A DNA stretch of 64,000 nucleotides from an uncultured Isosphaeraceae bacterium (GTDB lineage Bacteria; Planctomycetota; GCA-002687715), in assembly GCA_964507445.1 (NCBI GenBank), contig CAZDQF010000017.1, positions 28,613 to 92,612 on the forward strand. The letters are read 5' to 3'. Below are positions 1 through 45,767 of this stretch, one piece after another. The position numbers and the translations under genes are program-made. Each line of letters starts with the position of its first letter. Position 1 is the stretch's first letter. The notes below the pieces were generated by a model, which was not told where the DNA came from, ran no database searches, and was given only the letters and a program-made list of their open reading frames with translations.

Positions 1-488
1 GGTTCGGACCCGTACAGGCGTTCGACGCCGTGGACGGGGCAGAGGCCGGAGCACCACGCGCTCTTCCAGTCGAAGCGCGTTCCAAGGGTGGCGGACACGA
101 CGGCGACGATGATCAGCGTGACCGCCGTGCTGACGCCACTCGTGTCGAGGATGACGTGCCGCAGCGGAACGAGCAGGAAGAGGAGGATGACGCCGATGAG
201 GAAGAGCCGGCCCTGCAGCTTCGCCGAGGGCCGACGGCGATCGGAGATGCCCATGTGCCGCGCCGCGAGGGCCGTCGTCGCGAGGGGGCAGATGTTGCGC
301 CACAGACCGGGAGCGATGGCGAGGATCGCCGGGGCCGCGGGGATGAGGACGTTCCAGAACGCGTGCAGGCCGACCGTTGGCCAGGCAAGCAACAGGACCA
401 CGATCGCGAGGCCGACGAGCCAGACCGCTCCCTGAGCGGTCCTCCAGGCCCGGATGTTGGTGGTCGTCGTGGTGGCGTTCACGGACAT
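1..488 (-). CDS. N-terminal part (gene continues past window start) of a polytopic membrane protein with two TM-embedded C-x-x-CP motifs (WRNICPLAT, WCSGLCP), reminiscent of NapH/MauN/CcoG-type polyferredoxin membrane proteins
   Basis: ATG at 488-486 on the minus strand; the frame is open to position 1; the residues are hydrophobic with conserved Cys-Pro motifs. It is absent from the ORF track because no stop codon lies inside the window. Confidence 0.35.
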   Translation of the reverse strand, partial: MSVNATTTTTNIRAWRTAQGAVWLVGLAIVVLLLAWPTVGLHAFWNVLIPAAPAILAIAPGLWRNICPLATTALAARHMGISDRRRPSAKLQGRLFLIGVILLFLLVPLRHVILDTSGVSTAVTLIIVAVVSATLGTRFDWKSAWCSGLCPVHGVERLYGSE

Positions 489-778
489 GTCCTCGCAAGC
501 AAGTCGTATGCCGTCATTGGAGATTCCACCCGGATCGGGCGTGAGGGAGCCCCCCGTTCGATGCGTGGCACGGTCGGTCGATCATGAACATCCACGACTC
601 CCATACGCACCTGTTCTCCAGACCGTTCTTCGACGCTCTGGCCGCTCTCTCTGCTTCGGGAGGGGATTCTCCCGAGTTGCTCGCGGAGGTCTCTGCGAAA
701 GGGGGGTGGAGGTGCCTGGCCCCGATCGCGGTCCCCGCCCGGCGATCCTGCAGACACAGACGGCGGGTAGGCGGTTGC

Positions 779-863
779 AATCCCCTGCGCATCGATCCCC
801 TGCGTGTTAATCCCCTGCGTGTTAATCCCCTGCGCGTTGGTCACCTGTGCATTAATCCCCGCC
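779..863. repeat. About 5.5 copies of a degenerate 15-bp direct tandem repeat (atcccctgcgtgtta) in the region upstream of the FG-GAP lipoprotein gene
   Basis: Read directly from the sequence: units at 779-794, 795-809, 810-824, 825-839, 840-854 and 855-863, with 1-4 mismatches per unit. Confidence 0.7.
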
Positions 864-1023
864 GACCGGGCAGGATCAGCGGGCTTCTTGTGGGCCCGCC
901 GCGGGTCTCGCGGGGACACGGAAACAGACGCACCCAGGGAGGGCGGGAAGACCGCCCCCGTCGCGATAGAATCAACGCGTCCCCGCCATGCCCCGGTCCG
1001 GCCCGACGCCGGCGAGGAACTTC

Positions 1024-2742
1024 ATGCGACCTGTCATCGCCACGACCATCGCGGCAACGATCCTCCTCATGCTGCTCGGAGCCTGCTGCGACGCCGAACC
1101 CGATTCGACGTCGGCGACGCCGACCGGCCCCGTCACGTACGAGGACGCGACCACCGCAGCCGGGATCGCGTTCCAGCACTTCAATGCCATCCGGGCATCG
1201 GTCCTTCCCGAAGACATGGGATCGGGAGCTGCCTGGGGAGACGTCGACGGCGACGGCGACGAGGACCTCTATCTCCTCAACTACGCCGGCCCGCTGCTCG
1301 CGCCGATGGAGACCATCAAGAAGCGCAAGGGCAACGAGTTCTTCCGCAATCAGGGCGACGGGACGTTCGTGAACGCGACGGCCGACGTCGGCCTCGCCCG
1401 CAGCGCCCGCGACGCCGCCGCGTTGTTCGCCGACCTCGACCGCGACGGCGACCAGGATCTGGTCGTCACCGGGATGGACGGCTGCATGCTGTACAGGAAC
1501 GACGCCGGCAAGTTCACCGACGTCACGGCGGGCTCCGGCATCGATCGGGTCTCAGGGATGGCGCTCGGCCCGGCCCTGGGCGACTTCGACCTCGACGGCG
1601 ACCTCGATCTCTACATCCCCTGCTACGTCACCTTCCCGACGGAGAAGGCGCGCGACCGCCGCCTCGTCGGAGGGCGTCCCGAACCGTGGACGACGCCGGC
1701 GAGCTATCCCGCCCAACCGAACGTCCTGCTGCGCAATGACGGCGCGCTGAGATTCGTCGACGTCACCAAACAGGCCGGCGTCGAGAACGGCAACGGTCGC
1801 AGCATGCAGGCCGTCTTCGTCGACCTCGACGGTGACCGCTACCCCGAGCTCTTCGTCGGCAATGACCAGTCACCGGACATCCTCTTCTCGAACCGGGGCG
1901 ACGGCACGTTCGAGGACGTGAGCCTCGCTTGCGGCCTGTGGGACCCGCGCGCCAGCATGGGCGTGGCCGTCGGCGACATCGACGGCGATCGCGACGTCGA
2001 CCTTCATCTCACGCACTTCGTGCAGGAGCCTCCTGCGCTCATGCGCAACGACTCGCGCAAGGCGACGGCGGACGAGCCCGGTCACCTCCTGTTCCGGGAC
2101 GTCGCCGAGCAGAGCAGTCTGCTGGCGGCGTGGTACCGCAGCCTGGTCGGCTGGGCGACGGCGCTGCAGGATCTCGACAACGACGGCGACGTCGACCTGA
2201 TCGCGTTCCACGGCAGCACCATCGAGGACGAGCTCACGCAGGAGGTCTTCACCGACCCGAAGCTCCTGCCGCAGCACCCCCTGATCCTCACCAACGATGG
2301 CAAGGGTAACCTGACCGACGTCCGCGCGGGTGCCGGGCCTTTCTTCGAGGAGCTCATGGTCGTCCGCGGCGGCGCCTTCGCCGACTACGACCAGGACGGA
2401 CGCCTCGACGTGGTCGTCAACGTCCACGCGGGGCGCGCCCGGCTGCTTCGAAACACGTCTGGCAACGAGCACGGCTGGCTACGGGTGAAGCTCGTCGGCA
2501 CCAGGTCGAACCCGGACGGGGTCGGCGCCGTCGTCGAGCTCGAGCTCGACGATGGGCGCATCCTGCATCGACAGATCGTCTGCGGGTCGAGCTACCTCGC
2601 GGGTGACTCCCTTGTCGCCGCGTTCGGGACGGGCGCAGCCGCACCGAAGACTCTATCCGTCACCTGGCCGGTGACCGGTCACACCCAGGTCGTCGAAGCG
2701 CCGGAGCCAAACCGCACGATGACCGTCAGGGAGCCTGAATGA
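1024..2742 (+). CDS. CRTAC1/ASPIC-UnbV family FG-GAP (VCBS) repeat lipoprotein
   Basis: Lipobox LLGAC; repeated DxDGDGdxDL FG-GAP/VCBS motifs (DVDGDGDEDLYL, DLDRDGDQDLVV, DLDGDLDLYI, DIDGDRDVDLHL, DLDNDGDVDLIA); C-terminal UnbV-like region (RVKLVGTRSNPDGVGAVVELE). The ORF opens at 988; ATG at 1024 precedes the signal peptide. The stop overlaps the next gene's ATG (ATGA at 2739-2742). Confidence 0.85.
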   Translation: MRPVIATTIAATILLMLLGACCDAEPDSTSATPTGPVTYEDATTAAGIAFQHFNAIRASVLPEDMGSGAAWGDVDGDGDEDLYLLNYAGPLLAPMETIKKRKGNEFFRNQGDGTFVNATADVGLARSARDAAALFADLDRDGDQDLVVTGMDGCMLYRNDAGKFTDVTAGSGIDRVSGMALGPALGDFDLDGDLDLYIPCYVTFPTEKARDRRLVGGRPEPWTTPASYPAQPNVLLRNDGALRFVDVTKQAGVENGNGRSMQAVFVDLDGDRYPELFVGNDQSPDILFSNRGDGTFEDVSLACGLWDPRASMGVAVGDIDGDRDVDLHLTHFVQEPPALMRNDSRKATADEPGHLLFRDVAEQSSLLAAWYRSLVGWATALQDLDNDGDVDLIAFHGSTIEDELTQEVFTDPKLLPQHPLILTNDGKGNLTDVRAGAGPFFEELMVVRGGAFADYDQDGRLDVVVNVHAGRARLLRNTSGNEHGWLRVKLVGTRSNPDGVGAVVELELDDGRILHRQIVCGSSYLAGDSLVAAFGTGAAAPKTLSVTWPVTGHTQVVEAPEPNRTMTVREPE

Positions 2743-3392
2743 TGAAGTCACTCACGACCTCGATCCTCGTCCTCGCCATGGCGTTCGCCTTCGCCGCTTG
2801 CGGCGAGGACGCGCCCGAACAGACCGACCACGAAGCGTCGCACGAGACCGCCCACGGTGATCGGAGCCCAACCGGCGGCAAGCTCGAAACCGATCCGATC
2901 CCGTACCGGGCCAAGGGATCGAAGCCGGCGCTCACCAAGCCCGAGTTCCGGGCGGCTGACGACGTCCCGCTCCCTGACGGGCTGAACGTCATCGGCGTCG
3001 TCATCAACGGCGAGGCCAAGGCCTACCCCACGTTCATCCTCAACCAACATCAGGTCGTGAACGACTGGCTCGGGGGCGTGCCCATCGCCCCCTCCTGGTG
3101 AAGCAGCGAGCAGACGGTCATGGTTCATGACCGACGCGTGGGCGAGAAGGTCCTCGAGCTCGAGATGTCCGGCGAGGTCAAGCTCGGCAACCTCATCATG
3201 TACGACAAGACCACCGACACCCGCTGGCTCCAGATGAACGGCGAGGCCCTTCGCGGCCCGATGAAGGGCGAGGCACTGAAGGCGCTCGAAGACGCCCAGG
3301 TCGAGAAGGCGATCTCGTGGAAGAAGTGGCAGGAGCGCCACCCCAAGACGCAGGTCCTCTGGTGCGGACACTGCTTCAACGAGGGTAAGTAG
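2739..3392 (+). CDS. DUF3179-family lipoprotein interrupted by one in-frame TGA (3099-3101); candidate selenoprotein or nonsense pseudogene
   Basis: ORFs 2739..3101 and 3120..3392 are in the same frame and are separated only by the TGA. The combined product (lipobox FAAC; ...VIGVVINGEAKAYP...VVNDWLGGVPIAPSW[TGA]SSEQTVMVHDRRV...LGNLIMYDKTTDTRWLQ...RHPKTQVLW) matches the DUF3179 family as I recall it. The TGA falls where I recall a conserved Cys. Confidence 0.6.
3116..3132 (+). other. Hairpin ggtcatg-gtt-catgacc, 15 nt downstream of the in-frame TGA, with a G/U-containing apical loop 22-24 nt after the A of the TGA; candidate bacterial SECIS-like element
   Basis: A perfect 7-bp stem read from the sequence. 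The position and the GU apical loop are compatible with a bacterial SECIS, but it is not diagnostic. Confidence 0.25.
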
Positions 3393-3580
3393 ACGGCAGC
3401 AACCAGTCCCCGGCCGGCGACGTCTACTCCCCCGCCGACAGCAGCTTCAGCACCGCCTCCCCCAGCGCCTCCCGAAGACCGGAAACGCCGCCCCATCATC
3501 ACGGTACGACGCCACCAGAGACGTCCATGCCAGATCCGTCGCCTTTGCATCAACGCCGCTGAACACACGACGGCGAACGG

Positions 3581-3830
3581 ATGCCAGCGTTCATCGTCCG
3601 CCTCGTGAACCTGTTCCGCGCCTTCGCAGCCGACGGTGCCCGCATCGCCCTGGAGAACGTCGCTCTCCGGCGGCAGTTGCTCGTCCTGAAGCGCTCGGCC
3701 TAGCGCTCACGCATCAACGAGAGCCGCCGCACCTTCCGGATCTTGATGCGCCGGACGCTCGGCGATTGGAAGGAGTCCCTGCACGTCGTCAAGCCAGGGA
3801 CCGTCATCAGATGCGACTCGATCGAAGATC
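3581..3830 (+). pseudogene. N-terminal fragment of an integrase-type (rve-family) IS transposase, with an in-frame TAG at 3701
   Basis: MPAFIVRLVNLFRAFAADGARIALENVALRRQLLVLKRSA* then ...GDWKESLHVVKPGTVIR. These motifs resemble transposase N-termini (…LEAENLALRQQLAVLQR… and …WRDALVIVKPETVIRWHR…). No catalytic domain follows. Confidence 0.4.
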
Positions 3831-3863
3831 GGCGTCCGTCCGGACGGAGTCAGCGTCACGGTC

Positions 3864-4038
3864 TACCGTCGGGCAATCCGCACGATGGCCCTGCGGATGG
3901 GGTCTTCGGGACCCCTGCACGCCACCATCCTGCACATCCTGGGGCTGGATCACACCCAGGTGACCTGGGTCCAGAACGGCAGCGAACGTCGGCTCACCGA
4001 CGTCCACGGCCACGTCATCACCGACGTGCTGGCCTGAG
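3864..4038 (+). pseudogene. Orphan C-terminal fragment (about 57 codons) of a DUF1501-family gene
   Basis: Translation YRRAIRTMALRMGSSGPLHATILHILGLDHTQVTWVQNGSERRLTDVHGHVITDVLA* parallels the C-terminus of the intact DUF1501 gene at 59921..61300 (…[44 protein letters not shown]). No upstream body is present. Confidence 0.5.
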
Positions 4039-4040
4039 CC

Positions 4041-5666
<1,626 letters not shown>

Positions 5667-17696: not shown

Positions 17697-19103
17697 TCAG
17701 GGCAGGAACCCGCGGGGGTTCTTGAGCTTGGCCGGCAGGTACGTGTCCAGCACGTAGTTCAGGCCCCATTTGGCGAGGGCCTGCTGCTCCGCCCTGACCC
17801 CCATCTTCAGCAGCTGCTGCATGGCCTTCGTCCACGGCTTGTGGGCCTTGAAGAACGGGTCGTTCTTCAAGGCGTCCTTGGCCCGCCTCACGTCCACGTC
17901 CTTCAGCGGGTGGGTCGGCAGCTTGTAGTCCAGGATGTCCTGGGGAGTCACCCCCAGGAAGCGAGCCTTGGGGACGCAGTAGAACTGGTTGATGTGGGCG
18001 GCGTTGCCCGATCCCACCTTCAGGCTGCGGTAGATGTTGCTGATCCCATAGGGGTCGCAATCCACGAAGGCGTAAACGGGGATCTTCTGGCTGTCCGACA
18101 GACGCCGGATGAACCGGCGGCAGGCCCGGGTGGGGACCCCGCTCATGGAGACGATCACACAGCGGGCATTGGCCGGGTAGGCGTGGTACTGCAGGCGCTG
18201 GAACATGCCGCCCGTCTCGATGGCGAGGATGAACCGGGCCTTGGTCCTGAACTTCAGGTGCTCCACCGAGTGCGGGATGGTGTAGGCGCCGGACCCGAAC
18301 TGGGTGCAGTCGATCTCGATCTGCTTGCCGGTGGCCGGATCGCGATCGATCACCACCAGCTCTCCCGCCACGGCGCCGCCATGCTCGTCCGGATAGAAGC
18401 GGAGCTGTTCTCGGGTGACGCCATCGAGGGAGAAGGTCGCCTCGATGTCATCCATGACCGTGTCCGACTCGGTCTGCTGATCGAACCGGGCGTCCCCCCA
18501 GTTCTTGCTCTGGTAGTAAGCGTCCCGCTTGGTGGCGAACGTGTCCTCGCGCACCATCTCCTTGGACAAGGCCATCATCCGCAGGGTCTGGGCGAAGGTC
18601 CGCACCGTGTTCACGGTCAGGGTACGGGTCTTGCGCTGGCGACCGATCTGGAAATAGCCCACGCGAGCGTCGTAGCGGACGTTGGAGAGGGCCCGCACGG
18701 GCAGACTGAGCTCGGGCTTGGCGCCCCGCTTGATGCGGGCGTGCACGCCCGCCGCCGCCTTGTCGATGGCCACGACCACCTTGGCCTTCTTCCACGCGTC
18801 CCGGCGAGCCCGCCTGCGGGACGCCCCGCGGGCCCGGCCACCCACCCCTGGTGGTAAGCCCTGGGGTTCATCCGCCGACTCCTGCCGAGGCAGCTCGTCC
18901 GCGGCGGCGTAGGCTCGCTTCCGCACGCTGACCGTGGCCTCCAGAGCGGCCTTGGGGGACGAACGGCCGCCGGCCGCGGGCTTCTTCCTCGCGGCGGGCT
19001 TCTTCCTGCTCGCCTTCTTCTTCGCGGCGGGCTTCTTCCTGCTCACCTTCTTCTTCGCGGCGGGCTTCTTGCGCTTGGCTGCGACCTTCTTCTTTCCGGC
19101 CAT
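17697..19103 (-). CDS. top6A: DNA topoisomerase VI subunit A (Spo11/Top6A) with a Lys/Ala/Pro-rich N-terminal tail
   Basis: Toprim motif YAFVDCDPYGISNIYRSLKVGS and a winged-helix region (…TLVRTFAQTL…). The first 55 or so residues are KKPAAKKK-type repeats. Its start lies 1 nt after the top6B stop. Confidence 0.85.
   Translation of the reverse strand: MAGKKKVAAKRKKPAAKKKVSRKKPAAKKKASRKKPAARKKPAAGGRSSPKAALEATVSVRKRAYAAADELPRQESADEPQGLPPGVGGRARGASRRRARRDAWKKAKVVVAIDKAAAGVHARIKRGAKPELSLPVRALSNVRYDARVGYFQIGRQRKTRTLTVNTVRTFAQTLRMMALSKEMVREDTFATKRDAYYQSKNWGDARFDQQTESDTVMDDIEATFSLDGVTREQLRFYPDEHGGAVAGELVVIDRDPATGKQIEIDCTQFGSGAYTIPHSVEHLKFRTKARFILAIETGGMFQRLQYHAYPANARCVIVSMSGVPTRACRRFIRRLSDSQKIPVYAFVDCDPYGISNIYRSLKVGSGNAAHINQFYCVPKARFLGVTPQDILDYKLPTHPLKDVDVRRAKDALKNDPFFKAHKPWTKAMQQLLKMGVRAEQQALAKWGLNYVLDTYLPAKLKNPRGFLP
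18976..19075. repeat. Imperfect roughly 39-bp tandem duplication (gcgggcttcttcctgctc[g/a]ccttcttcttcgcggcg) that encodes the KKPAAKKK tail of Top6A
   Basis: Read from the sequence; it is coding. Confidence 0.6.
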
Positions 19104-19104
19104 C

Positions 19105-20775
19105 TCAGAGCTTCCGACTACGCTCGAGGATGTCCTCGAGCCTGGCCACGGCCTTGTCCGTGTCCTTGTCCGACAGCTCCAGGATCTCCTGGAGCGCCAC
19201 GCCGATCTGGGGCAGGTAACGGGAGATGAAGTCGCGCTTCTTCATCTCGTCCGCCTCACGACGGCGGCGGGAGAGGAAGGCCCCGAGCTTGCGTCCGCAC
19301 TCGTTGAGGGCGAGGCGGATCTCCTTGATGATCTCCGGGTAGTGCGCCACCGCCTCCTTGCTCTCCGAGGTGAAGGGCACCCAGACGGACGCCACGTGAA
19401 CCAGGACGGTCAACGGGCCAACGGGCAACGCGCCTCGCGACTGCTGCAGGCCGTAGTTCTTCCACGACGTCCCGACAATGGCCTTGTTGATGGCGCAGGC
19501 GCCGGGCTGATACAGCAAGGGCACCCGGTTGGCCAGACGGAGCACCCGGGCCAGGTCGTCCGCGGGGAGGCTCCCCCCCCAGGCGATGCCGGCTTCAACC
19601 ACGAACGGGTTGCCCCGGTAGACCGCGGGCGGACGGGTGACGGCGGTGAAGAAGTCCGCGTCCACTTCCTTCTTGAGCCCTTCCAGGATCAGGTCCTGGC
19701 CCACCGGGACGACGCAATCCGTGGCGGGCGCCATGACCCTCGTCTTCTGGATGGCCTTGTAGAGCAGGTCCGCCTCTCGATTGGCGATGGTCGTGGGGCG
19801 AGCCTTGGGCGAGATCCCCGCCTGTTCGCAGATGGCGTCCGCCACCGCCGCGGACACCCTCGAGAACGTGTCCTGCAGCGCCCCCTTGAGGGTGCGTGCG
19901 CCGCTCTCCTTCATGAGGCGTGCGAGCACCCCCAGCTCCACGCCATGGGGGTGAGGCTTGATCTGCCTGGCGGGTTCCGGGACCACCTTGCAAGCGCGCC
20001 TGAACACCACCAGCTCCTCCCCCGGAGCGCGGTAACTGATGGCGGCGTGGGGGTTGGCCATGGCGGTCTGCTGCAGGTACTCGTCCACGGACTGCCGCCC
20101 CTTCAGGTAGCGACCCTCCAGCTCGATCTCCACCCGGGTCCCCGACCCCTTGCGGAAGCCCTTGGCCTCCCGCTCCCGGGACACCTCCGGACGGTTACGG
20201 GCGGTGTCGATGCGCACGTCCATTCGCACCGCCTTCCCGGTCCTCGAGGTGCGCGTGGTGATGCGCATGGGCTTGCCCGTGGTCAGCTGCCCGTACATCC
20301 CGGCGGCGGAGATGCCGATCCCCTGCTGACCGCGGCTCTGCTTCAGGCTGTGGAACTTGGAACCGTACAGGAGCTTGCCGAAGATCTTCCCCACCTGCGC
20401 CTTGACGATCCCCGGACCGTTGTCCTCCACGGCGACCACGAAGCGGTCGTCCTCACCCTCCACGGGGATGATCTCCACCAGGATGTCCGGCAGGATCTCC
20501 GCCTCCTCACAGGCGTCCACGCTGTTGTCCACCGCCTCCTTGATGGTGGTCAGCAGCGCCTTGCGGGGGTTGTCGAAGCCGAGGAGGTGCCGATTCTTGG
20601 CGAAGAACTCGGACACCGAGATCTCGCGCTGGCCGCGGGCCATGGTCTCCGCCGTGGCCTTGGTGCGCCTCGCCTTGGAGCGGGAAGGGGCCGCGCCGGA
20701 CGAACGCCCGACCGCCTTCTTGCGAGGCCGCTTCTTCGCCGCTGCCTTCTTCTTCCTGCCGCCGCCGACCGCCAT
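19105..20775 (-). CDS. top6B: DNA topoisomerase VI subunit B (GHKL/Bergerat ATPase) with a Lys/Arg-rich N-terminal tail
   Basis: …SEFFAKNRHLLGFD…, the Bergerat-fold ATP-lid VEDNGPGI, …GQQGIGISAA…, and a transducer domain. The N-terminal 45 or so aa are RKKKAAAKKRPRKK. Confidence 0.85.
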   Translation of the reverse strand: MAVGGGRKKKAAAKKRPRKKAVGRSSGAAPSRSKARRTKATAETMARGQREISVSEFFAKNRHLLGFDNPRKALLTTIKEAVDNSVDACEEAEILPDILVEIIPVEGEDDRFVVAVEDNGPGIVKAQVGKIFGKLLYGSKFHSLKQSRGQQGIGISAAGMYGQLTTGKPMRITTRTSRTGKAVRMDVRIDTARNRPEVSREREAKGFRKGSGTRVEIELEGRYLKGRQSVDEYLQQTAMANPHAAISYRAPGEELVVFRRACKVVPEPARQIKPHPHGVELGVLARLMKESGARTLKGALQDTFSRVSAAVADAICEQAGISPKARPTTIANREADLLYKAIQKTRVMAPATDCVVPVGQDLILEGLKKEVDADFFTAVTRPPAVYRGNPFVVEAGIAWGGSLPADDLARVLRLANRVPLLYQPGACAINKAIVGTSWKNYGLQQSRGALPVGPLTVLVHVASVWVPFTSESKEAVAHYPEIIKEIRLALNECGRKLGAFLSRRRREADEMKKRDFISRYLPQIGVALQEILELSDKDTDKAVARLEDILERSRKL

Positions 20776-20817
20776 GGGCCGGTCAGTATAGCGGCTGCGG
20801 ACCGACCGGTGCCCGGC

Positions 20818-22134
20818 TCAGGACCCGATGGCGCGATCCACCACGTGCAACGCCTTGTCAATGATGGCGAAGCCCTCCCGCAGCTGCTCCTCGTTGATCA
20901 CCAGGGGCGGGTTGACGAAGAAGGTCCCCCCCCAGACCACGGTGAACAGGCCGCGGTTCAGCAGCTCGGCGTTGAACTCCTTCATCACCGGGTGGGCGCC
21001 CCTGAAAGGCACCAGCCGGGCACCGTCCTGCGTACCCAATTCCACCAGACCGAACAGCCCGATGTTCCGTGTGGTGCGCACGGAGGGGTGGGCCTCCTCA
21101 AGGCGCTCCATCTCCTCCCGCATGACCGGTCCCAGACGAGCGGCGTTGCCGACCAGATCCTCGTCAGCGATGACGTCCAGCACCGCGAGGGCCGTGGCGC
21201 AGGCCAGGGCGTGGGAGTTGTAGGTCAACCCACCCCAGTACACGTTCTCGCGGAAGTGCTCCGCCAGGTGGCGGCGCATGCCCACGGCCCCCATGGGGAC
21301 GTAGGAGCTGGTCAGGCCCTTCGCCATGGTCACGAGATCCGGGACGATCCCCGCGTGCTCGAAGGCGAACATCCTGCCCGTCCGACCGAACCCGGACATG
21401 ACCTCGTCGCACACCAGGAGGATGCCGTGGCGCTCGGTCAGCTCCCTGACGCCTTCCACCCAGCCCGCCGGGGGCGGGACGACGCCGTTGGTGCCGATGA
21501 TCGGCTCCATGAAGAAGGCGGCGATGTGCTCGGGGCCCTCGTACTGGATCACCTCCTCCAGGTAGGTCAGGTGATTGCGCGTGATCTCCTCCGCGGACTC
21601 GCCGAAGGAGTAGTCGTAGGGCTGCGGGTCCATGACACGCACCACCCCCGGCATCCCCGGCTCATGTTGCAGGCGCCGCGGGTCACCGGACAGCTGCATG
21701 CAGGCGTGGGTACCCCCGTGGTAGCTGCGGTATCGGGACAGGATCTTGTGCCGGCCCGTGTACTGCCGCGACACGTTGATGGCGCTCTCGTTGGCGTCCG
21801 CCCCTCCGAGGGTGAAGAAGAAGGCGTCCATGTCCCCGGGCATGATGGCCGCCAGCCGCTCACCGAGGCGGGCGCGAGGCTCCGTGGCCGATCCGGGCCA
21901 GGCGAAGGTCAGCTTGTCCATCTGCTCCTTCATGGCTTCGAGGACGCGAGGGTGGCCGTGGCCCACGTGGACGGACATGAGCTGGCTGTTGAAGTCCAGG
22001 TACCGCTTGCCGTCCGGGTCCGTGAAGTGCACCCCCTGAGCGCTCTCCACCGGCAGGGGCTTCACCTGTCCGGTGGCGGACCACGCGAACAAGGTGTGCT
22101 CCTGACAGAGCCGGATCATCTCCTCTGCATTCAT
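20818..22134 (-). CDS. Class III (omega) aminotransferase, beta-alanine/3-aminoisobutyrate--pyruvate transaminase-like
   Basis: …LLVCDEVMSGFGRTGRMFAFEH… with the PLP-lysine in DLVTMAKGL. It lies 4 nt downstream of mmsA. Confidence 0.85.
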   Translation of the reverse strand: MNAEEMIRLCQEHTLFAWSATGQVKPLPVESAQGVHFTDPDGKRYLDFNSQLMSVHVGHGHPRVLEAMKEQMDKLTFAWPGSATEPRARLGERLAAIMPGDMDAFFFTLGGADANESAINVSRQYTGRHKILSRYRSYHGGTHACMQLSGDPRRLQHEPGMPGVVRVMDPQPYDYSFGESAEEITRNHLTYLEEVIQYEGPEHIAAFFMEPIIGTNGVVPPPAGWVEGVRELTERHGILLVCDEVMSGFGRTGRMFAFEHAGIVPDLVTMAKGLTSSYVPMGAVGMRRHLAEHFRENVYWGGLTYNSHALACATALAVLDVIADEDLVGNAARLGPVMREEMERLEEAHPSVRTTRNIGLFGLVELGTQDGARLVPFRGAHPVMKEFNAELLNRGLFTVVWGGTFFVNPPLVINEEQLREGFAIIDKALHVVDRAIGS

Positions 22135-22138
22135 CGCT

Positions 22139-23626
22139 TCAGCTCATCCATGTCTGGTCTCTCTGCGACGCCCACTTGGACGTGATCTTCCGTGGTCGGG
22201 TCCAGAACCGGAACCCGTCCCGGCCCGTGAGGTTGCCGTGTCCGAACAGGGAGTTGTTCCAGCCACCGAACCCGAAGGGCTCCCGCGGCACCGGCACCCC
22301 CACGTTGACGCCGCACATGCCCGCGGACACCCGCTCCATGACCTCCCGGGCCACCTCCCCGGAGGTGGTGTAGACGCTGGAGGCGTTGCCGTACTCGGAC
22401 CCGTTCTCCACGGCGATGGCCTGATCCAGGCTGTCCACGCGGATCACGGAGAGCACCGGCCCGAACACCTCCTCGCTGCCCACGGGCATCTCCGGCCGGA
22501 CGCCGTCGAGGATCGTGGGGCCGACCCAGTACCCGCCGTCCGTGGCCCGCTGCCCCCGACCGTCCACCAGCACCCGGGCCCCGGCCGCCACGGCGGCGTC
22601 GATGTAGGCGTTGATACGCTCCATGGAGTGCTGGCTGGTGACCGGTCCCATGTCCTCCCCCACCCGGATACCGGCGGCGCTCTGCACCACCTCGTCCAGG
22701 ATGTGATCCACGTCGCCGACCCCCAACATGACCGACGCGGCCATGCAACGTTGACCGGCGCATCCGGTGAAGGAGTCCACCACATTCCGGGCGGTCAATT
22801 CCACATCAGCGTCGGGGACGACGATGAGGTGGTTCTTGGCGCCGCCGAGGCACAGCAGGCGCTTGCCCGTGGCGGCTCCCCGTTCGTAGACGTTCCGGGC
22901 GACGGCCGTGGACCCCACGAACGCCAGGGCCGCGATGTCAGGAGCAACCGCCAACGCCTCCACCGCCTCGCGGCCACCGTTCACCACGTTCAGGATCCCG
23001 TCCGGGAGCCCCGCCTCCTTGAACAACGCGGCCAGACGCTGCATGGACAGGGGCACCTGCTCCGAGGGTTTGATGATGAAGGCGTTGCCGCCGACGATGG
23101 CCTGGGGGAGCATCCACATGGGGACCATCACCGGGAAGTTGAAGGGGCAGATCCCCGCCACGACCCCCAGGGGCTCGTGCACCATCATGCAGTTGACGCC
23201 GCGGCTCACGTCCAGCTGCTGTCCCGTGGCCAGGTTGGGCAGCGAGCACCCGAACTCGACGCACTCGATGGCCTTGGCCACGCTGGCGGACGCCTCCGCG
23301 AAGGTCTTGCCGTTCTCGTGGGACGCCAGCCACGCCAGCTCTTCCTGGTCACGGATCAGGAGCTCGCGCAGCCCATAGAACACCTGCGCCCGGTCCCGGA
23401 TGGACGCCTGCCCCCAGCTGGGCTGGGCCGCCCGCGCCGCCTTCACGGCCGCCTCCACCGCCGCGGCGCCGCTCAACGGGACGCGCCCCATGGCCTCACC
23501 GTGCCGCGGATTCACCACGTCCACCAACGCCGCGTCCGGGTCCTCCACGAACACCCCGTCGATGAAGTTCCGCGCGTCCACGAACCGGCGGAAGGCGTAG
23601 CTGGTGGCCTCGAACTTGCCGAGCAT
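22139..23626 (-). CDS. mmsA: Methylmalonate-semialdehyde dehydrogenase (CoA-acylating)
   Basis: ALDH fold with the mmsA-type catalytic region FTGCAGQRCMAAS and …FVGSTAVA…. ATG at 23626; the track ORF begins at TTG 23653. Confidence 0.85.
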   Translation of the reverse strand: MLGKFEATSYAFRRFVDARNFIDGVFVEDPDAALVDVVNPRHGEAMGRVPLSGAAAVEAAVKAARAAQPSWGQASIRDRAQVFYGLRELLIRDQEELAWLASHENGKTFAEASASVAKAIECVEFGCSLPNLATGQQLDVSRGVNCMMVHEPLGVVAGICPFNFPVMVPMWMLPQAIVGGNAFIIKPSEQVPLSMQRLAALFKEAGLPDGILNVVNGGREAVEALAVAPDIAALAFVGSTAVARNVYERGAATGKRLLCLGGAKNHLIVVPDADVELTARNVVDSFTGCAGQRCMAASVMLGVGDVDHILDEVVQSAAGIRVGEDMGPVTSQHSMERINAYIDAAVAAGARVLVDGRGQRATDGGYWVGPTILDGVRPEMPVGSEEVFGPVLSVIRVDSLDQAIAVENGSEYGNASSVYTTSGEVAREVMERVSAGMCGVNVGVPVPREPFGFGGWNNSLFGHGNLTGRDGFRFWTRPRKITSKWASQRDQTWMS

Positions 23627-31723: not shown

Positions 31724-33670
31724 CTACTTCCAGTGGAACCGGGCCCGCTGCTTCACGTGGCAGTCACGGCAGGAGGCGTCCGATTCCGACGGGATCGGCA
31801 CGTCCTGGAGGCGCGAGGCCCCCTCGGTTCCCCGATGGCAATCGGCGCAGTCGGCGTCCACGTGGCCACGACTGCGGTGCGAGAAAGTGTTGGGCTGGGG
31901 CCAGGACCGCATGAGCTCGCCGCCGGTGTAGACCGGGTCCCCTTCCAGGTGACACGCGTCGCAGTCCCCGCCGCCCACGTTGTCATGGTTCTCGTGACAC
32001 GGCGTGCAGGATCTGGCCTCCGCCGTGGTGCCGGGCACACTTGAAGACCGCAGGTCGTCCCCCATGGTGTGGCAGGAGAAGCAACCGTTCTTAAGGCCGG
32101 GCTTGCTGGTGTCCAGGTGCTTGCCGTGGGGGAACTGGTTGACCCCGATCAACCCCGGCAGCCCCGGACGCAGGCCCGCCTCGGGGACGCCGGTGTCATG
32201 ACACTCCGCGCAGGCGGCGTCGCCCGCCGGCCCGCGGTAGATCCCCTTGGTCAATCCCGCCGACGCCTCCCCGGAGACCACGTCGAGGTGACATGACCGG
32301 CACTCGCCGTCCGCCGCCGCGTCCATGGACGAGAGGTGCACGCCGTGCAGGAACGGTCGGTCCGCGAGCTTCGAAGCAAACACCTTGCCGTCGCGATGAC
32401 AGTCCGCGCAATCCTTCCCGCCGGTGTCGAACTCGTGCTGATGGTCCCGCAGGGCCAGGGCGTAGACGTGGGCCCCCACCGTGAGCTCCGCCCGGGCCAG
32501 GCGCTCCACGGTCTTCAATGGAGCCGCGTGCAGGGTCTGGTGGCACTGGGCGCAGCTGACCCCCTGGTCCGCGTCCGCCCCGTGCCACGTCGCCTGCCAG
32601 CGCACCGCCTCCGGCGCCGCCTCCGACCCGTGGCACTCCTGGCAGCGCTCGTACTTGATGCGTTTGAACTCCCGCTCCGGGATGCCCCGCGATGGATCGG
32701 ACGCCTGGGCCACGTCCGCGTACTCGTGGCAGGTCTCACAATCCTCGATCCGCATGGCGCCGGCGCCCTCTCCCATGGCCTCCGCAGACAGGTGCTTGTC
32801 ATGGGGGAAGGTGTCGTAGGTCAGCGCCACCCAGGGGGTGTCGTCACGGGGAGGCACCGGCGCGGTGATCTCCGGGATCAGGTCTCCGTGGCAGTCCACG
32901 CACGTGTCCTCCGCGCGCACGGAGGTCAGGCTCGCCGTGTCCGTGCCGCGATGATCCACGTGACACGGCTGACACGATTGCCCGTCCCAGGAGACGGGGT
33001 GGGTCGGGTTCTCCACGATGTCCGCGTGGCAGGCGCTGCAGGCGGAGGGAGGTGTCCCCACCCAGCCCGAGTGGCACGCCGCGCACGAGCCGTCCCCGTG
33101 CCCCGCCGCCCGGAGCGCCGCCAGCTGCTCCGGCGCGTGGGTCGCCCAGTACCCCGGCGTGTGCACGCGGGCCAGGGAGCCGGGGTTCACCAGGGGCTCC
33201 TCCACGGCGTCCACGAACGACAGGGCGAACAGCGCGCCCACCAGCACCACGGCGGCGTAGTTGCCCCAGCGCAGAGGGCGGAACCGGCCGAACTCCACCT
33301 CGTAGCGAGACCACCGCAGCGGGTCCTCCTTCTTGTCATAGAAGAAGGACTGCTCCTTGAGGGCGCAGGTGAGGGTCCCCTTCTCCTCGTCGATCTCGCA
33401 GGTGAACTTGGAGACCCCGATGACGACGCCGATCTTGCCCTCGCCCTTGATCTCCGTGCGCTCGTCCACGGAGACCCCGGCCATGTAGGTCCCGGACGAG
33501 GTCCCCAGGTCCTCGATGAAGAAGCGGCCGTCTTCGTGGGTGAACGCACAGTGACGTTCCGCGACCATGGGGTCGTCCACCACCAGGTCGCAGGTGGAGC
33601 GTGTCCCCACCACCCCCGCGCGGTTCTCGATGGTGGCGGTCGCGCCTTTCTTCTTCAGGACAATCGCCAC
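31724..33670 (-). CDS. FHA domain - transmembrane helix - multiheme cytochrome c (15 CxxCH) fusion protein
   Basis: N-terminal FHA signature (VGTRSTCDLVVDDPMVAERHCAF…IEDLGTSSGTYMAGV), a TM segment (YAAVVLVGALFALSFV), then 15 CxxCH motifs. The probable start is GTG 33670, 1 nt after the upstream stop; the track ORF begins at GTG 33736. Confidence 0.8.
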   Translation of the reverse strand: MAIVLKKKGATATIENRAGVVGTRSTCDLVVDDPMVAERHCAFTHEDGRFFIEDLGTSSGTYMAGVSVDERTEIKGEGKIGVVIGVSKFTCEIDEEKGTLTCALKEQSFFYDKKEDPLRWSRYEVEFGRFRPLRWGNYAAVVLVGALFALSFVDAVEEPLVNPGSLARVHTPGYWATHAPEQLAALRAAGHGDGSCAACHSGWVGTPPSACSACHADIVENPTHPVSWDGQSCQPCHVDHRGTDTASLTSVRAEDTCVDCHGDLIPEITAPVPPRDDTPWVALTYDTFPHDKHLSAEAMGEGAGAMRIEDCETCHEYADVAQASDPSRGIPEREFKRIKYERCQECHGSEAAPEAVRWQATWHGADADQGVSCAQCHQTLHAAPLKTVERLARAELTVGAHVYALALRDHQHEFDTGGKDCADCHRDGKVFASKLADRPFLHGVHLSSMDAAADGECRSCHLDVVSGEASAGLTKGIYRGPAGDAACAECHDTGVPEAGLRPGLPGLIGVNQFPHGKHLDTSKPGLKNGCFSCHTMGDDLRSSSVPGTTAEARSCTPCHENHDNVGGGDCDACHLEGDPVYTGGELMRSWPQPNTFSHRSRGHVDADCADCHRGTEGASRLQDVPIPSESDASCRDCHVKQRARFHWK

Positions 33671-33671
33671 C

Positions 33672-35147
33672 CTACATCCCCACGATGTCCGCCGGGTCCA
33701 CCCTGGAGATGGCGCTGCACGGACAGTTATAGACACACGCTTCGAACGGCAGGCCCGCGCACAGGTCGCACTTGATGGCCTTCTTGTCGGGCTTCTTGGG
33801 TTTCTTGGGCTTCTCCGCCTCCTCCGAAGCCGCCTCCGGTTCCTGCGCCGGTGTCCCCTTGGAGCGCTTGATGAAGGGCAGCATGCGGGAGAAGAATGAG
33901 CGCCGCTCCTTCTCTTCGCCGCCGGGCTCCGTCAGGGTGGCCATGCGGATGACGCCGTAGGGGCACTTGATCTCGCACGCCATGCATCCGGTGCAGTTGG
34001 GCAGGATGAAGTGGATGGCGCCGTTGACGTCACGGCGGATGGCGCCGTAGTTGCAACCGATCATGCACTCGGGGACCGTGCAGTTGTAGCAGGCGCTGGT
34101 GAGCATGACGTCGCCGGTCTTGATGCCACGCTTGGACAACCGGGGGACACCGTCCTCGTGGACCGAGACGCAGGCCTCCACGCAGGCGTTGCATCGGGTG
34201 CAGCGCTTGAGATCGATGAGCAGGGCCTCCCCTCCCTTCACCGCCTCCTTGCCCACCATGAGGTCCATGGCCGCGGTCCTGGACAGGTCCACCACAGGCG
34301 CCGGGTCGTTCTTCACCTCCTGCCCCTGCTCCTGGGCCAGCAGCAATCCCACGGTCTGCTGGATGCGGGTCCCCGCCTGCACGTCGCGCTTGTACAGGGC
34401 CAGGAAGACCTCTCGGCGCAGCCGCACAACGTCCACCCGGGTCATGGCCACCATGCTGGATGGCCAGGTCTTGTCATCCGCCAGGGACCGCTCACCGAAG
34501 GAGGAGTTGTCCCGCAGGAACGCCACCACCTTGGAGCCCTCCGGCGTGGCCCGCTCTTCCTTGACGATGCCGCTGCGGACCAGATAGACGGCGTCCGCCT
34601 CCTTGCCCTCTTCTGCGATGGCCTTGCCCTCGGCGAACGTCAGCAGCTCCGCGTCCTCCGCCACGGCGGCGAGGACGTGACGATCAACGCCCTTGAACAC
34701 CGGCGCCGACCTCAGGTGGACCGCGAGGGCCCGCTCCCGGTATCGCTCGTCGATCAGGTCCCTGAACGACCCGCCGCCCTTGTAGAGGGTCTTGAACAGC
34801 GGCGCCCCCACCACCATCAGGGTGCAGTGGGCCTCCGCCTTCACGGTGCTGAACTGAGGCTGGTTGGCCAGGGCCGTCATCTCTCCGAACCAGTCATGGA
34901 CCCCGTGGGAACCCATGTTCTCGACGCTGCCGTCCGACTCCGTCCGGTAGGCGGTGGCGATGCCGTCCAACACCACGAACAGCTCTTCCAGGAACTCCCC
35001 CTGCCGGACCAGGGTGTCCCCTGGCATGGCTCGGCGAAACTCCACCTCGCTCTCAGCCGCAGCCATGGCCTTCGGCTTCACCTTGCCGAACAACGGGACC
35101 TGCGTCAGCAGGGCCTTGAGTTCTCCAAACTGCGCAGCGCCGCTCAT
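33672..35147 (-). CDS. Cytoplasmic protein with two cyclic-nucleotide-binding (cNMP) domains and C-terminal multi-cluster 4Fe-4S ferredoxin domains
   Basis: cNMP signatures (…WFGEMTAL…, …FGERSL…); Cys motifs CTRCNACVEAC, CYNCTVPECMIGC, CTGCMACEIKCP and CDLCAGLPFEACVYNCPC; no signal peptide. Confidence 0.8.
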   Translation of the reverse strand: MSGAAQFGELKALLTQVPLFGKVKPKAMAAAESEVEFRRAMPGDTLVRQGEFLEELFVVLDGIATAYRTESDGSVENMGSHGVHDWFGEMTALANQPQFSTVKAEAHCTLMVVGAPLFKTLYKGGGSFRDLIDERYRERALAVHLRSAPVFKGVDRHVLAAVAEDAELLTFAEGKAIAEEGKEADAVYLVRSGIVKEERATPEGSKVVAFLRDNSSFGERSLADDKTWPSSMVAMTRVDVVRLRREVFLALYKRDVQAGTRIQQTVGLLLAQEQGQEVKNDPAPVVDLSRTAAMDLMVGKEAVKGGEALLIDLKRCTRCNACVEACVSVHEDGVPRLSKRGIKTGDVMLTSACYNCTVPECMIGCNYGAIRRDVNGAIHFILPNCTGCMACEIKCPYGVIRMATLTEPGGEEKERRSFFSRMLPFIKRSKGTPAQEPEAASEEAEKPKKPKKPDKKAIKCDLCAGLPFEACVYNCPCSAISRVDPADIVGM

Positions 35148-35149
35148 GA

Positions 35150-36160
35150 TCAGTACCAGATCACCGAGACCGTGTGGACGATGGCGAAGCCGAGCAGCAA
35201 CAACGAGCAGGGCACGTGGACGACGCGCCAGACGTTGATGCTGAACTTGACCCGGGCAGCGGCGGCCAGGTCATCGAGGATCCGGCGTCGCTGGGAGACC
35301 AGCACCATGACATCTTGCAGATCCTGCCGCCCCTCAGGCGCCTCCTCCATCATGCTCATGAGAGCGGTGCGGTGCACCAGGGCCCGGGTCGTCGCCTTCC
35401 CCGCCCCCTTGAGCCGCTTCACCTCGTGCGCGTCCAGCCCATCGTAGGCTTCCCGGATCTTGGCCTTCAGGCTCCGCTCCAGCACGAAGGCCTGCTCGTG
35501 GTTCATGTCGCGCTCCGCGCGGGTCATCCAACGCGGGCCCAGGGCGAACAACACCGTACCGACGACGCCGGTGACGATGACCAGCACGGCCAGCCCGTTG
35601 AGGATCACCCCCATGGGCGAGACCATGGAGAACCCTCCGTGGACCCACAAGGTGACGCCGGAAGCCAGACCCAGGTAGACGTGGAAGTGGAGCCACCTGG
35701 ACATGCGCCCGAGGGGTTCCGTGGGCTCCACCCCGACGATGAACGCCGGTCCACCGACCGCTCCCGGAGTGACCTTGGCCTTACAGATCCGATCGGCCCC
35801 GTGAGCCGCCAACTCCCGCTGCGCCATCTCCCTGATCTCGGCGGCGTTGTTCAGCAACCCCAGGAGCACCCGGCGTCGGATGTCGTTCAGGCCTTGCTCC
35901 GCCTGCTCCAGCTGCTCCAGGGGCACCTTCAGCTTGAACTCGGGCGAGATCCCCAGGCGATGCATGAACTTGCGCAGAGAGTAGACGCAAACCGCCACCA
36001 TGATCCCCAACGTGGTCCACCCACTGGCGAGCACGATGTCCACGTCGGAGCCTTCCCGGGCCCCCGCAGCGCTCCCAGCGGCCGCCAACCACCAGACGAA
36101 CCCGCCTGACACGATGACGGCGACCACGGACCACCAGCTCCTGAACAGGGAGACGTTCAC
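35150..36160 (-). CDS. 5-TM integral membrane protein with conserved intramembrane histidines (possible b-type haem or quinone-interacting subunit)
   Basis: TM helices containing WLHFHVYLG…WVHGG and RVVHVPCSLLLLGFAIVHTV. It overlaps the upstream gene by 4 nt and sits 2 nt from the downstream gene. Confidence 0.55.
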   Translation of the reverse strand: MNVSLFRSWWSVVAVIVSGGFVWWLAAAGSAAGAREGSDVDIVLASGWTTLGIMVAVCVYSLRKFMHRLGISPEFKLKVPLEQLEQAEQGLNDIRRRVLLGLLNNAAEIREMAQRELAAHGADRICKAKVTPGAVGGPAFIVGVEPTEPLGRMSRWLHFHVYLGLASGVTLWVHGGFSMVSPMGVILNGLAVLVIVTGVVGTVLFALGPRWMTRAERDMNHEQAFVLERSLKAKIREAYDGLDAHEVKRLKGAGKATTRALVHRTALMSMMEEAPEGRQDLQDVMVLVSQRRRILDDLAAAARVKFSINVWRVVHVPCSLLLLGFAIVHTVSVIWY

Positions 36161-38193
36161 CGGCGTCTCCCAGGGAAGCCATCGAGCTCGCCGCCGAGCG
36201 ATTCAGCGATCCGCCTCCACTCCGGACGCGTCTTCCCCGAACCGGTGAGCCCCTTCTCGATCAGCTCGTGCCAGTGGCAGTCCGCACAACCTTCCGGGTC
36301 GCTCCGGGACGCCTGCCGCGCGCCCCTGTGATAGCCGTTGCGCTCGTACTTCATGTCCGCATGGACCAGCACGTCCTCCCGGACGTTGAACACGGCCGCG
36401 CCGGGCAGGTGGCAGGTGCCGCACTTCTGTTCCGCCGGATAGGGGTGCCACTGAGCCCCGGCGACGCCCGTCACCCGGACCCGGAAATCGCTCACCGCGA
36501 CGTCCGCCTCGGGGCCGTCAGGGCCGTGGCAACGGGCGCAGGACTGGACGTAGTCCCTCCCCTTGTCCGCGCAGATCTCCGGACGCTCGCCGTGGTCGTG
36601 GCACGCCGAGCAGTCCATGGCGCCGGGCAGGGTCCCGACCCCTGGCGCCCCTCCCTGCGCCGGCACGTGGCAGGACACGCAACCGTCCTCGAGGAGCGGG
36701 TCTCTCAACGCCTTCGCCGTCATGTGGACGTCGTGGGGGAACGTCGGCACCCTGCGAGGAGCCACCGTCTCCTCGCTCCGGATCACGCTCAGCTCGCCGC
36801 CCTTGTGACACTCTCCGCACGCCTTGTCGGAGTAGAGGCTCAGGTCCTCGGGCCGGGTCGACCCCGTGATGTCGCCGTGGCAGGCCACACAGTCCTGGTT
36901 GGTGGGGTTCGGCGGCAGGTGGGTGTCATGAGAGAACGCCTTGCCGCTGATACGAGAGGGCAGCCCGCCCTCGATCCTGGCCCGATGGCACTTGCGACAG
37001 TCTTCCCCCTGCACCAGCTTCCCGCCCCGGCGGGTGATCATGGGGTGGTCGTGGCTGGTCACGGCGAACCCCACCGGCCGGGTCCGCGACACCTCCACCT
37101 GGGGGCGGAGAGTCTTCATGGGGCCGTCGCCGAAGGCGTGGCACGGCGCGCAGCTCTCCACCTTGCCGTGGTCGTCGATTCCCTGGGCGTCCCGCACCGC
37201 CAGCGGGTTGTCCTCGAGGCGGTCGTGGCATTCCGCGCAGGCGCTGTAACGGCGCTCCCGGAACTTGCTCTGCAGCCCGTAGGTGCGGCCTTCCTCCGCC
37301 GGCTCGTGGCAGGCGAGGCACCCCTTGGAGCGCAACGCCGGGTCCTTGTTCAGCGCATCCGCGTCCATGTGAGGACCGTGGGGGAAGGTCCCCAACAGGA
37401 CACACTCGTGAGCAGCGCGTTCCAGCTGCTCGGGCCCCAGCAGTCCCTCCCCCGACCGGTCCTTGTGACAGTCGGCGCAAGAGTCCAGCTTCACCATGGA
37501 GGGGCCGATGGCGGCGCCTGGGTCCGTGAGGAGATCGCCGTGGCATGTCCCGCACGCCGCCGCGTCCGCGCCGCTGCCCGCGGGCAGGTGCTCATCGTGG
37601 CGAAACGCCGCGGGCCGAGGGCCCGTCGCCTTGCCGAGGTAGGCGTTCAGTCCATCGACGAATTCGACGTTCTTCGTCCCCGACGGGTCGGCGTCGATGG
37701 CGTTCGCACCCTCCGGATCGTGACACTCGAAGCAGGTGTGCCACCCGGGCCGGAACTTGATGTCACCGCGCCTGCCCAGATCATCCGGGCGTCCGGAAGC
37801 CCCCTCGTGGCATCGCTTGCAGTCGTAGGCCGCATGGGACCAGTGCCTGAACGGACGCCCGTCAGCGCGGAGCACGTCCAGGTCTTCCAGGAACGACGGA
37901 CTCGTGTCCTCTCGGTCGAGCTCCAGGGCTGGGGCGCCTCCGCCGCTGCTGTGGCAGGCGTCGCACACCTGCTGCGGGTCCCGGGTCTCGGTCTCGCTCT
38001 TGTAGAGATGGCAGCCCCGACAATCCCTGGCGTATTCGCTGCCGCCCTCCTGGCGCCAGCCCGCACGGACGTGGTCCGCGTGTCGAAACGGCTTGCTGGT
38101 CGACGGCGGCGAGTCGCTCCGCTCGTTGGAGGACGGCACCATCAGGACGAGCTGGGCGGTGGTCACAACCGCCAGGGCCAGAGACCGTCCCAT
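36157..38193 (-). CDS. Secreted multiheme cytochrome c (17 CxxCH)
   Basis: ATG at 38193 precedes a signal peptide (MGRSLALAVVTTAQLVLMVP); 17 CxxCH motifs. The start lies 2 nt after the stop of the tandem-FHA gene. Confidence 0.8.
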   Translation of the reverse strand: MGRSLALAVVTTAQLVLMVPSSNERSDSPPSTSKPFRHADHVRAGWRQEGGSEYARDCRGCHLYKSETETRDPQQVCDACHSSGGGAPALELDREDTSPSFLEDLDVLRADGRPFRHWSHAAYDCKRCHEGASGRPDDLGRRGDIKFRPGWHTCFECHDPEGANAIDADPSGTKNVEFVDGLNAYLGKATGPRPAAFRHDEHLPAGSGADAAACGTCHGDLLTDPGAAIGPSMVKLDSCADCHKDRSGEGLLGPEQLERAAHECVLLGTFPHGPHMDADALNKDPALRSKGCLACHEPAEEGRTYGLQSKFRERRYSACAECHDRLEDNPLAVRDAQGIDDHGKVESCAPCHAFGDGPMKTLRPQVEVSRTRPVGFAVTSHDHPMITRRGGKLVQGEDCRKCHRARIEGGLPSRISGKAFSHDTHLPPNPTNQDCVACHGDITGSTRPEDLSLYSDKACGECHKGGELSVIRSEETVAPRRVPTFPHDVHMTAKALRDPLLEDGCVSCHVPAQGGAPGVGTLPGAMDCSACHDHGERPEICADKGRDYVQSCARCHGPDGPEADVAVSDFRVRVTGVAGAQWHPYPAEQKCGTCHLPGAAVFNVREDVLVHADMKYERNGYHRGARQASRSDPEGCADCHWHELIEKGLTGSGKTRPEWRRIAESLGGELDGFPGRRR

Positions 38194-38195
38194 GG

Positions 38196-39707: not shown

Positions 39708-39757
39708 GGTGCTCGGTAATCCCCGCTTGTTTGCGGGTATGGTAGCGCATGGTGGGA

Positions 39758-43618
<3,861 letters not shown>

Positions 43619-43630
43619 CTTCCGACTCCC

Positions 43631-45556: not shown

Positions 45557-45767
45557 GGCCCCTCTCTCCTTTGGCCGCCCCGGCTCTGGTCACCGCAGGT
45601 CCTCGCAGGAACACGGATGCGCCCCGGGCCTGCACAAGCTAATTCCGCGGCTGCCCCCCGTCAAAGAGAACCGGTCGGCCGCGTCCTGCCGCAGTGGCGC
45701 ACGGCGGGTGCTTGGCATAGCCTGTAGCCGTCGCAGGCAGGAGGAACCAAGAGGGGGATTCTGAGCG

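Follow-up and report, generated by a model that had tools for sequence, protein, structure and literature searches.

A single-repeat DUF3179 lipoprotein gene with an in-frame UGA at a conserved cysteine position in a planctomycete contig: a very probable selenoprotein gene

Gene and features of the locus

A 64,000-nucleotide stretch of DNA from an uncultured Isosphaeraceae bacterium (Planctomycetota; assembly GCA_964507445.1, contig CAZDQF010000017.1, positions 28,613 to 92,612 of the forward strand; here called the window) contains, at positions 2739 to 3392, a DUF3179-family lipoprotein gene with one in-frame TGA codon. The analysis described here indicates that this region very probably encodes a 217-residue DUF3179-family selenoprotein, with selenocysteine (Sec) at residue 121 and a bacterial selenocysteine insertion sequence (SECIS) shortly downstream of the UGA. 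The features of the gene, and the gene that precedes it, are as follows.

2739..3392, + strand: predicted short-form DUF3179 lipoprotein open reading frame (ORF) with a single repeat; one frame, Pfam match through the TGA, Sec assigned to codon 121
2739..2801, + strand: predicted lipoprotein signal peptide with lipobox F-A-A-C (Cys21, 2799-2801), recognized by inspection of the sequence
3099..3101, + strand: UGA, predicted Sec121 codon, on the invariant first Cys of CPL[C/T]; TGA in relatives
3115..3133, + strand: predicted bacterial SECIS stem-loop, from the fold and from covariation in 34 Sec-type genes; not in Cys-type genes
3363..3374, + strand: C-terminal C-G-H-C (Cys209, His211, and Cys212), specific to the short form
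3390..3392, + strand: true stop codon TAG, read from the sequence
988..2742, + strand: FG-GAP/UnbV_ASPIC repeat protein gene, 584 aa (Pfam FG-GAP_3, 6e-34; UnbV_ASPIC, 2.8e-11)

The frame from 2739 to 3392 comprises 218 codons, and the TGA at 3099-3101 is its sole internal stop. The ORF pieces at 2739-3101 (120 aa) and 3120-3392 both lie in this frame, as an initial annotation of the sequence had described, and public records hold the gene as two "hypothetical protein" ORFs of 120 and 90 aa. The joined product matched the Pfam model DUF3179 (PF11376) with an E value of 4e-39 and a score of 135.2 bits (gathering cutoff, 27), in one unbroken stretch that runs from residue 63 to residue 207 and spans the TGA. 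This match bore out the family assignment of the initial annotation but not its description of the protein as full length: only profile positions 5 to 147 of 292, the first of two internal DUF3179 repeats, are covered. Proteins of this kind are termed short forms below, and two-repeat proteins are termed long forms.

Both halves of the gene have a coding-type composition, with G+C contents of 0.88 and 0.92 at third codon positions (GC3) and 0.47 and 0.36 at second positions (GC2) for the upstream and downstream halves, respectively. In a six-frame scan of the window, this gene was the only site at which a TGA separates two adjoining high-GC3 segments of one frame. A second TGA-split candidate, at 19105-22143 on the reverse strand, was rejected as two separate genes (a class-III aminotransferase and a topoisomerase VI B subunit). 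TGA serves as the normal stop in about 33 of the 44 window ORFs selected by composition, which indicates that the genetic code is not reassigned.

Conservation of the UGA codon

In a MAFFT alignment, 16 Cys-type homologs all have Cys at the TGA column, where it opens the motif CPL[C/T]; further invariant positions are A95, Y96, P97, H104, D109, G112, G145, Q165, G173, and L180. The initial annotation had placed the TGA at the first Cys of a C-P-L-C segment. The column was correct, but the residues that follow the TGA in the window are S-S-E, not P-L-C. The codon at this column was then surveyed in the window gene, in the loci fetched earlier, and in 80 metagenomic DUF3179 loci. TGA was found 32 times, and Cys codons were found in 51 loci (TGC, 31; TGT, 20), in agreement with the alignment; AAC occurred twice, and neither TAA nor TAG occurred at all.

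The nearest database proteins were three fragments of 119 to 120 aa, each of which ends exactly at W120. The contigs that encode them carry 120 codons, a TGA, and 96 further codons in the same frame, and the products are 62 to 69% identical to the window protein. A search of assemblies, with one genome per GTDB species, located the gene in four metagenome-assembled genome (MAG) species: L017 (100% identity), L018 (78%), L019 (83%), and L020 (67%). L017 is a separate assembly that is 100% identical over window positions 1-4803, the TGA included. The 218-codon layout was also found in L001, L007, L018, and L019, and the more distant L026 (48% identical) has a matching layout with the motif U-P-S-E, where U is Sec. 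TGA stands at the Cys column in each of the five distinct lineages of the short form, as well as in L026 and in over 25 long-form loci, where the motif reads U-P-L-C, U-P-I-C, U-P-L-T, or U-P-L-A.

Substitution rates were compared on the two sides of the TGA by Nei-Gojobori estimates among three lineages. The ratio of nonsynonymous to synonymous rates (dN/dS) was 0.20 to 0.38 for codons 122 to 217, downstream of the TGA, and 0.19 to 0.39 for codons 136 to 217, past the SECIS codons; for the mature upstream part (codons 45 to 120), it was 0.26 to 0.39. These estimates indicate that purifying selection is the same on either side of the TGA.

Two further observations concern this site. The residue before Sec (window positions 3096-3098) is Trp in nearly all Sec-type genes and mostly Tyr or Phe in Cys-type genes; common descent, or a need for a particular codon context in UGA decoding, may account for this difference. 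In L050:1733 and L073:3115, Asn (AAC) occupies the otherwise invariant Cys/Sec column, giving N-P-L-C, with the second Cys kept.

The SECIS stem-loop

In the window, positions 3115-3122 fold with 3126-3133 into an 8-bp stem with the loop GUU. The stem that is conserved in the family has 7 bp (3115-3121 with 3127-3133) and an apical loop, GGUUC, at 3122-3126, in which G3122-C3126 is a possible eighth pair. The initial annotation had noted a 7-bp hairpin with a G/U loop at 3116-3132, 15 nucleotides (nt) downstream of the TGA. That hairpin is real, as are its 7-bp form and its G-U loop, but the stem begins at 3115, with its base 13 nt after the UGA. The minimum free energy (MFE) over 52 nt from the UGA was −16.7 kcal/mol.

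Covariation was assessed in an alignment of 34 Sec-type genes (A4) that is free of gaps from the UGA to +48. The 7-bp helix (A4 columns 17-23 with 29-35) was paired in 90.8% of cells, versus 27 to 39% in controls in which the 3' arm was slid by 1 to 3 columns. Compensatory changes were observed in four of the seven pairs, with 32 cells doubly changed, and none of 500 shuffles matched either the pairing or the covariation. With the U of the UGA taken as position 1, the loop bases G25 and U26 (G3123 and U3124) are invariant in A4. A Ser switches codon family together with the opposite arm: GGA (Gly) stands opposite UCC (Ser) in some genes, and GCU (Ala) stands opposite AGC or AGU (Ser) in others (A4 columns 19-21 and 31-33; for example, L028, L031, L033, and L044 versus L037, L039, L058, and L066). 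Read from the aligned genes, this switch is an uncommonly clear example of codon choice being constrained by RNA structure.

The Cys-type genes lack this structure. At the same codon-aligned columns, 50 Cys-type genes had a mean of 3.2 of 7 positions paired, and none had more than 5, whereas the Sec-type genes had a mean of 6.4 of 7, with 23 of 32 perfectly paired. The z score of the folding MFE was −1.25 for Sec-type genes and 0.03 for Cys-type genes (Mann-Whitney P = 1.4e-7). The presence of the helix in Sec-type but not Cys-type genes indicates that the hairpin goes with the UGA rather than with the protein sequence. Long forms, such as L028, L034, and L054, share the same hairpin at the same codon-aligned position. 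A search of Rfam gave no match at the gathering threshold and, around the hairpin, only chance hits at E values up to 10.

In the SECIS of Escherichia coli fdhF, the loop bases that contact SelB are G23 and U24, and about 11 nt separate the UGA from the minimal hairpin. The window element is likewise an intragenic stem-loop directly 3' of the UGA; its spacer is 13 nt, and its loop G-U lies at +25/+26. It differs from the fdhF element in having no evident bulged U and an unrelated stem sequence.

Alternative explanations

The initial annotation had called the gene a candidate selenoprotein, and that proposal is now sustained by the Cys column, the conservation of the TGA, the downstream dN/dS, the covarying hairpin specific to TGA forms, and the listing of DUF3179 in reviews. 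DUF3179 is given there as a prokaryotic selenoprotein family with the motif UxxC/T (PMC9312934, PMC13188914), which PMC13188914 credits to Zhang and Gladyshev 2007 (PMC1976440). The window protein belongs to the same Pfam family, its Sec falls on the published column (the first Cys of CxxC/T), and the gene is a further member of this known selenoprotein family rather than a new family. Complete Sec insertion gene sets are reported in some Planctomycetes (PMC4807772); DUF3179 is not among the selenoprotein candidates in the supplementary candidate list of that study.

Several results weigh against this interpretation. SelA, SelB, and SelD were not found by Pfam among about 40 ORFs of the 64-kb window, nor did selA, selB, or selD turn up in the fetched loci; tRNA-Sec was found neither in the window nor in 104 loci. 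These results carry little weight, as they cover part of a genome. (The window yielded no tRNA of any kind.) From the single sequence, the hairpin has modest thermodynamic support (z = −2.0, with 8 of 200 shuffles folding equally well). Synonymous sites within the SECIS are not significantly depleted of changes in the short-form clade (4 of 11 versus 55 of 96; P = 0.16), a result explained by the shallowness of the clade, so that family-wide covariation is the useful test. The motif U-S-S-E (U-P-S-E in L026) departs from the published UxxC/T, with the second Cys/Thr replaced by Glu. As to function, a PDB sequence search found no solved homolog, and the sole fold resemblance, to Rieske/NirD-like proteins, is weak and nonsignificant.

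Three other explanations of the TGA were considered. In the first, the gene is split: translation would stop at the UGA and restart at AUG 3120, and the resulting 120- and 90-aa chains would form one domain. This AUG is conserved in the U-S-S-E clade, gene callers begin the second ORF there, and purifying selection downstream would be equally expected. However, AUG 3120 lies within the stem (3115-3122) with no evident Shine-Dalgarno sequence before it, and this position holds no AUG in L026 or in the long forms, many of which have GUU or GUC instead. Furthermore, UGA is the only stop codon that occurs at the site, to the exclusion of UAA and UAG, hairpin covariation is confined to the UGA forms, and the six codons from the UGA to the AUG align with family residues. 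A split gene is, on this evidence, very unlikely.

In the second, the UGA is read through or recoded as a standard amino acid (Trp or Cys) without selenocysteine. UGA is the leakiest of the stop codons, and no Sec machinery was found in the 64-kb window. Read-through of this kind is nonetheless highly improbable: TGA terminates about three quarters of the window ORFs, the position of the hairpin and its invariant loop G-U are typical of a SelB-binding SECIS, and the site corresponds to the conserved Cys of a family that reviews already list among the selenoproteins.

The last, which the initial annotation had named as its alternative, is a pseudogene or a sequencing or assembly error (a nonsense TGA or a miscalled TGC or TGT); although a lone in-frame stop and a gene deposited as two separate ORFs of 120 and 90 aa are the expected look of such an event, it is effectively excluded by the TGA in 5 short-form lineages, in L026, and, across unrelated samples, in over 25 long-form genes, by the identical independent assembly L017, by the downstream dN/dS of 0.19 to 0.39, and by a covarying hairpin specific to TGA forms, and because the TGA is present in long forms and distant relatives, neither an error nor a lineage-specific nonsense mutation explains it.

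Architecture of the short form and its conserved neighbor

The architecture of the product was compared with that of the family. Typical DUF3179 members matched the query twice in an exhaustive HMMER search (6311 hits), which indicates that DUF3179 is an internal duplication and that the window protein is a single repeat. The approximately 292 positions and the ending FWFAW…P.T that mark the full two-repeat form are absent from the window protein, which has 96 residues after Sec, versus 200 to 258 in long forms. Where long forms have the second repeat, the short form has a C-x-H-C tail: WCGHC[F/V] in the window, L001, L007, L018, and L019, and HCRHCL in L026. This conserved tail would most likely supply a resolving thiol or extra ligands in the short form. 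No Cys-encoding short form was found among the best 150 of the 6311 HMMER hits or among the 80 metagenomic loci. In a rough neighbor-joining tree, the short-form clade lies beside the long Sec form L027 (UPLA), and Sec forms fall into at least three clades.

Other repeat arrangements were seen in the family. The metagenomic contig L055 carries two tandem Sec-type DUF3179 genes, L055:1128 and L055:1933. The latter is full length with U-P-L-C; the former is short, with U-P-L-A, 89 residues after Sec, and no C-x-H-C tail, and its sequence marks it as a second, independent single-repeat Sec form. The top scorers of the exhaustive search, P0022 (1004 aa) and P0023 (1587 aa), contain 4 and 6 DUF3179-repeat matches, respectively, which indicates that the repeat also occurs in multicopy arrays.

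The stop codon of the upstream FG-GAP gene overlaps the start of the selenoprotein gene by 4 nt (ATGA), and the N terminus of the FG-GAP protein resembles a lipoprotein signal (…LLGAC). By tblastn, an FG-GAP gene (60 to 100% identity) lies directly upstream at L001, L007/L010, L017, L018, L019, and L025, which are all of the short-form loci with enough upstream sequence. It is not upstream in the long-form loci checked (L014, L015, and L021). The coencoded FG-GAP lipoprotein is likely to be a partner or a substrate of the selenoprotein. Relative to the published DUF3179 family, the window protein differs in its single repeat, its U-S-S-E motif, its C-x-H-C tail, and its fixed FG-GAP/ASPIC-UnbV neighbor.

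A more speculative proposal, to which we give less than even credence, is that the short form is a distinct, undescribed single-repeat DUF3179 subfamily, confined to marine Planctomycetota, in which the resolving Cys has moved to the tail; that the tail and Sec121 together make up either a selenylsulfide or a Sec/Cys/His metal site; and that this subfamily is a dedicated redox or metal partner of the FG-GAP/ASPIC-UnbV lipoprotein. If true, this would provide the first functional handle on DUF3179 and on the bacterial CRTAC1/ASPIC-like proteins.

Predicted export, fold, and function

The product is probably a lipoprotein. A Cys follows a hydrophobic N terminus in all lineages (VSAC, LPAC, MGSC, and VGGC), and the NCBIfam lipoprotein-signal models gave weak matches only (residues 2 to 36; E values of 0.03 to 0.7). 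NCBIfam holds no family-level model for the protein.

An AlphaFold2 model was built from a 17-sequence alignment with X at residue 121. It predicts an all-beta core with a mean predicted local distance difference test (pLDDT) score of 80.8; the score exceeds 90 at residues ∼60 to 210 and falls to ∼52 in the last seven residues. Sec121 is placed in a loop after a beta-strand of the all-beta domain. In a Foldseek search of the PDB, the top 12 matches were all of the Rieske/NirD type, with E values of 0.056 to 0.5 and TM scores of 0.41 to 0.52 by target and 0.24 to 0.27 by query. The spacing of the invariant His104 and Cys121-x-x-Cys124 in the family may loosely resemble the CxH…CxxH ligand loops of Rieske proteins, but the structural scores are nonsignificant and there is no sequence-level match to Rieske families. 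The modeled resemblance would thus be a lead and not a classification.

A Sec/Cys pair at a CxxC/T site usually identifies the residue as catalytic and redox active, which suggests that the most likely role of the protein is that of a selenol-based periplasmic oxidoreductase. It resembles the DsbA-like and thiol:disulfide interchange selenoproteins (UxxC/CxxU) listed by the two selenoproteome reviews (PMC9312934, PMC13188914) in that it is probably directed to the periplasm, has Sec where a CxxC-type motif has Cys, and has abundant Cys homologs; it differs from them in that its model is all beta and not thioredoxin-like. The WCGHC tail likewise resembles the active site of protein disulfide isomerase only as a string of letters at the C terminus, with no thioredoxin fold.

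A working mechanism can be outlined. The gene would probably be cotranscribed, and translationally coupled, with the upstream FG-GAP/ASPIC-UnbV gene, as suggested by their 4-nt overlap. Once a ribosome is at the UGA (3099-3101), stem-loop 3115-3133, with its loop GGUUC, would serve as a bacterial SECIS and bring in SelB with Sec-tRNA(Sec); Sec would be placed at position 121, and translation would continue to the TAG at 3390. The lipobox Cys21 would direct the product across the inner membrane, where it would be lipid anchored in the periplasm, and Sec121 would act as a catalytic selenol at the conserved redox or ligand Cys of the family.

When the TGA is read as Sec, a 217-aa lipoprotein is recovered in at least four Planctomycetota-type MAG species. 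In the sample of DUF3179 relatives closest to the window protein, about a third use Sec, and the one covarying SECIS common to the Sec-type genes is a possible family-specific search model. In a large family of no assigned function (6311 representative clusters), the Sec/Cys pair singles out residue 121 as the likely catalytic position, and the fixed pairing of the short form with an FG-GAP/ASPIC-UnbV gene is a pointer to function. To a specialist, the finding is real but unsurprising: it is well supported and largely ordinary, with the shortened architecture as its unusual part, and it leaves knowledge of selenocysteine decoding itself unchanged. Its practical value lies in the correction of split annotations, in a covarying SECIS for the family, and in flagging a short, tail-bearing, FG-GAP-linked subfamily.

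Other features of the window

Between the selenoprotein gene and a convergent aldehyde dehydrogenase gene (3393-4040), there is no high-GC3 ORF. A frame at 3581-3859 on the forward strand (…ALENVALRRQLLVLKRSA*RSR…VVKPGTVIRC…, with an in-frame TAG at 3701) resembles a decayed N-terminal fragment of an insertion sequence (IS)-type transposase; Pfam gave no match for 3581-3859. The remainder of the window encodes ordinary metabolism and the planctomycete hallmark families PSCyt1/PSCyt2/PSD1 and DUF1501.

The L017 contig (CAZETS010000099.1), which is 100% identical to window positions 1-4803 and 57693-61297, is labeled "uncultured Spirochaetaceae bacterium." All relatives of the FG-GAP/selenoprotein operon are from Planctomycetota MAGs. 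Given these relatives and the planctomycete hallmark families, the taxonomic label or the binning of L017 is probably wrong.

A cluster of large multiheme cytochrome genes, with Cytochrome_C7 and MtrC/MtrF-like domains, occupies 31727-45589 on the reverse strand. An FHA domain is present in one of these genes and LVIVD repeats in one. Interspersed with them are a gene for a cyclic nucleotide monophosphate (cNMP)-binding 4Fe-4S protein and two large ORFs, at 35153-36202 and 43634-45589, that had no Pfam match. Adjoining genes for topoisomerase VI subunits A (Spo11/Toprim) and B (transducer/HATPase) lie at 17700-20817 on the reverse strand. Topoisomerase VI is an enzyme of archaeal type and is seldom found in bacteria.

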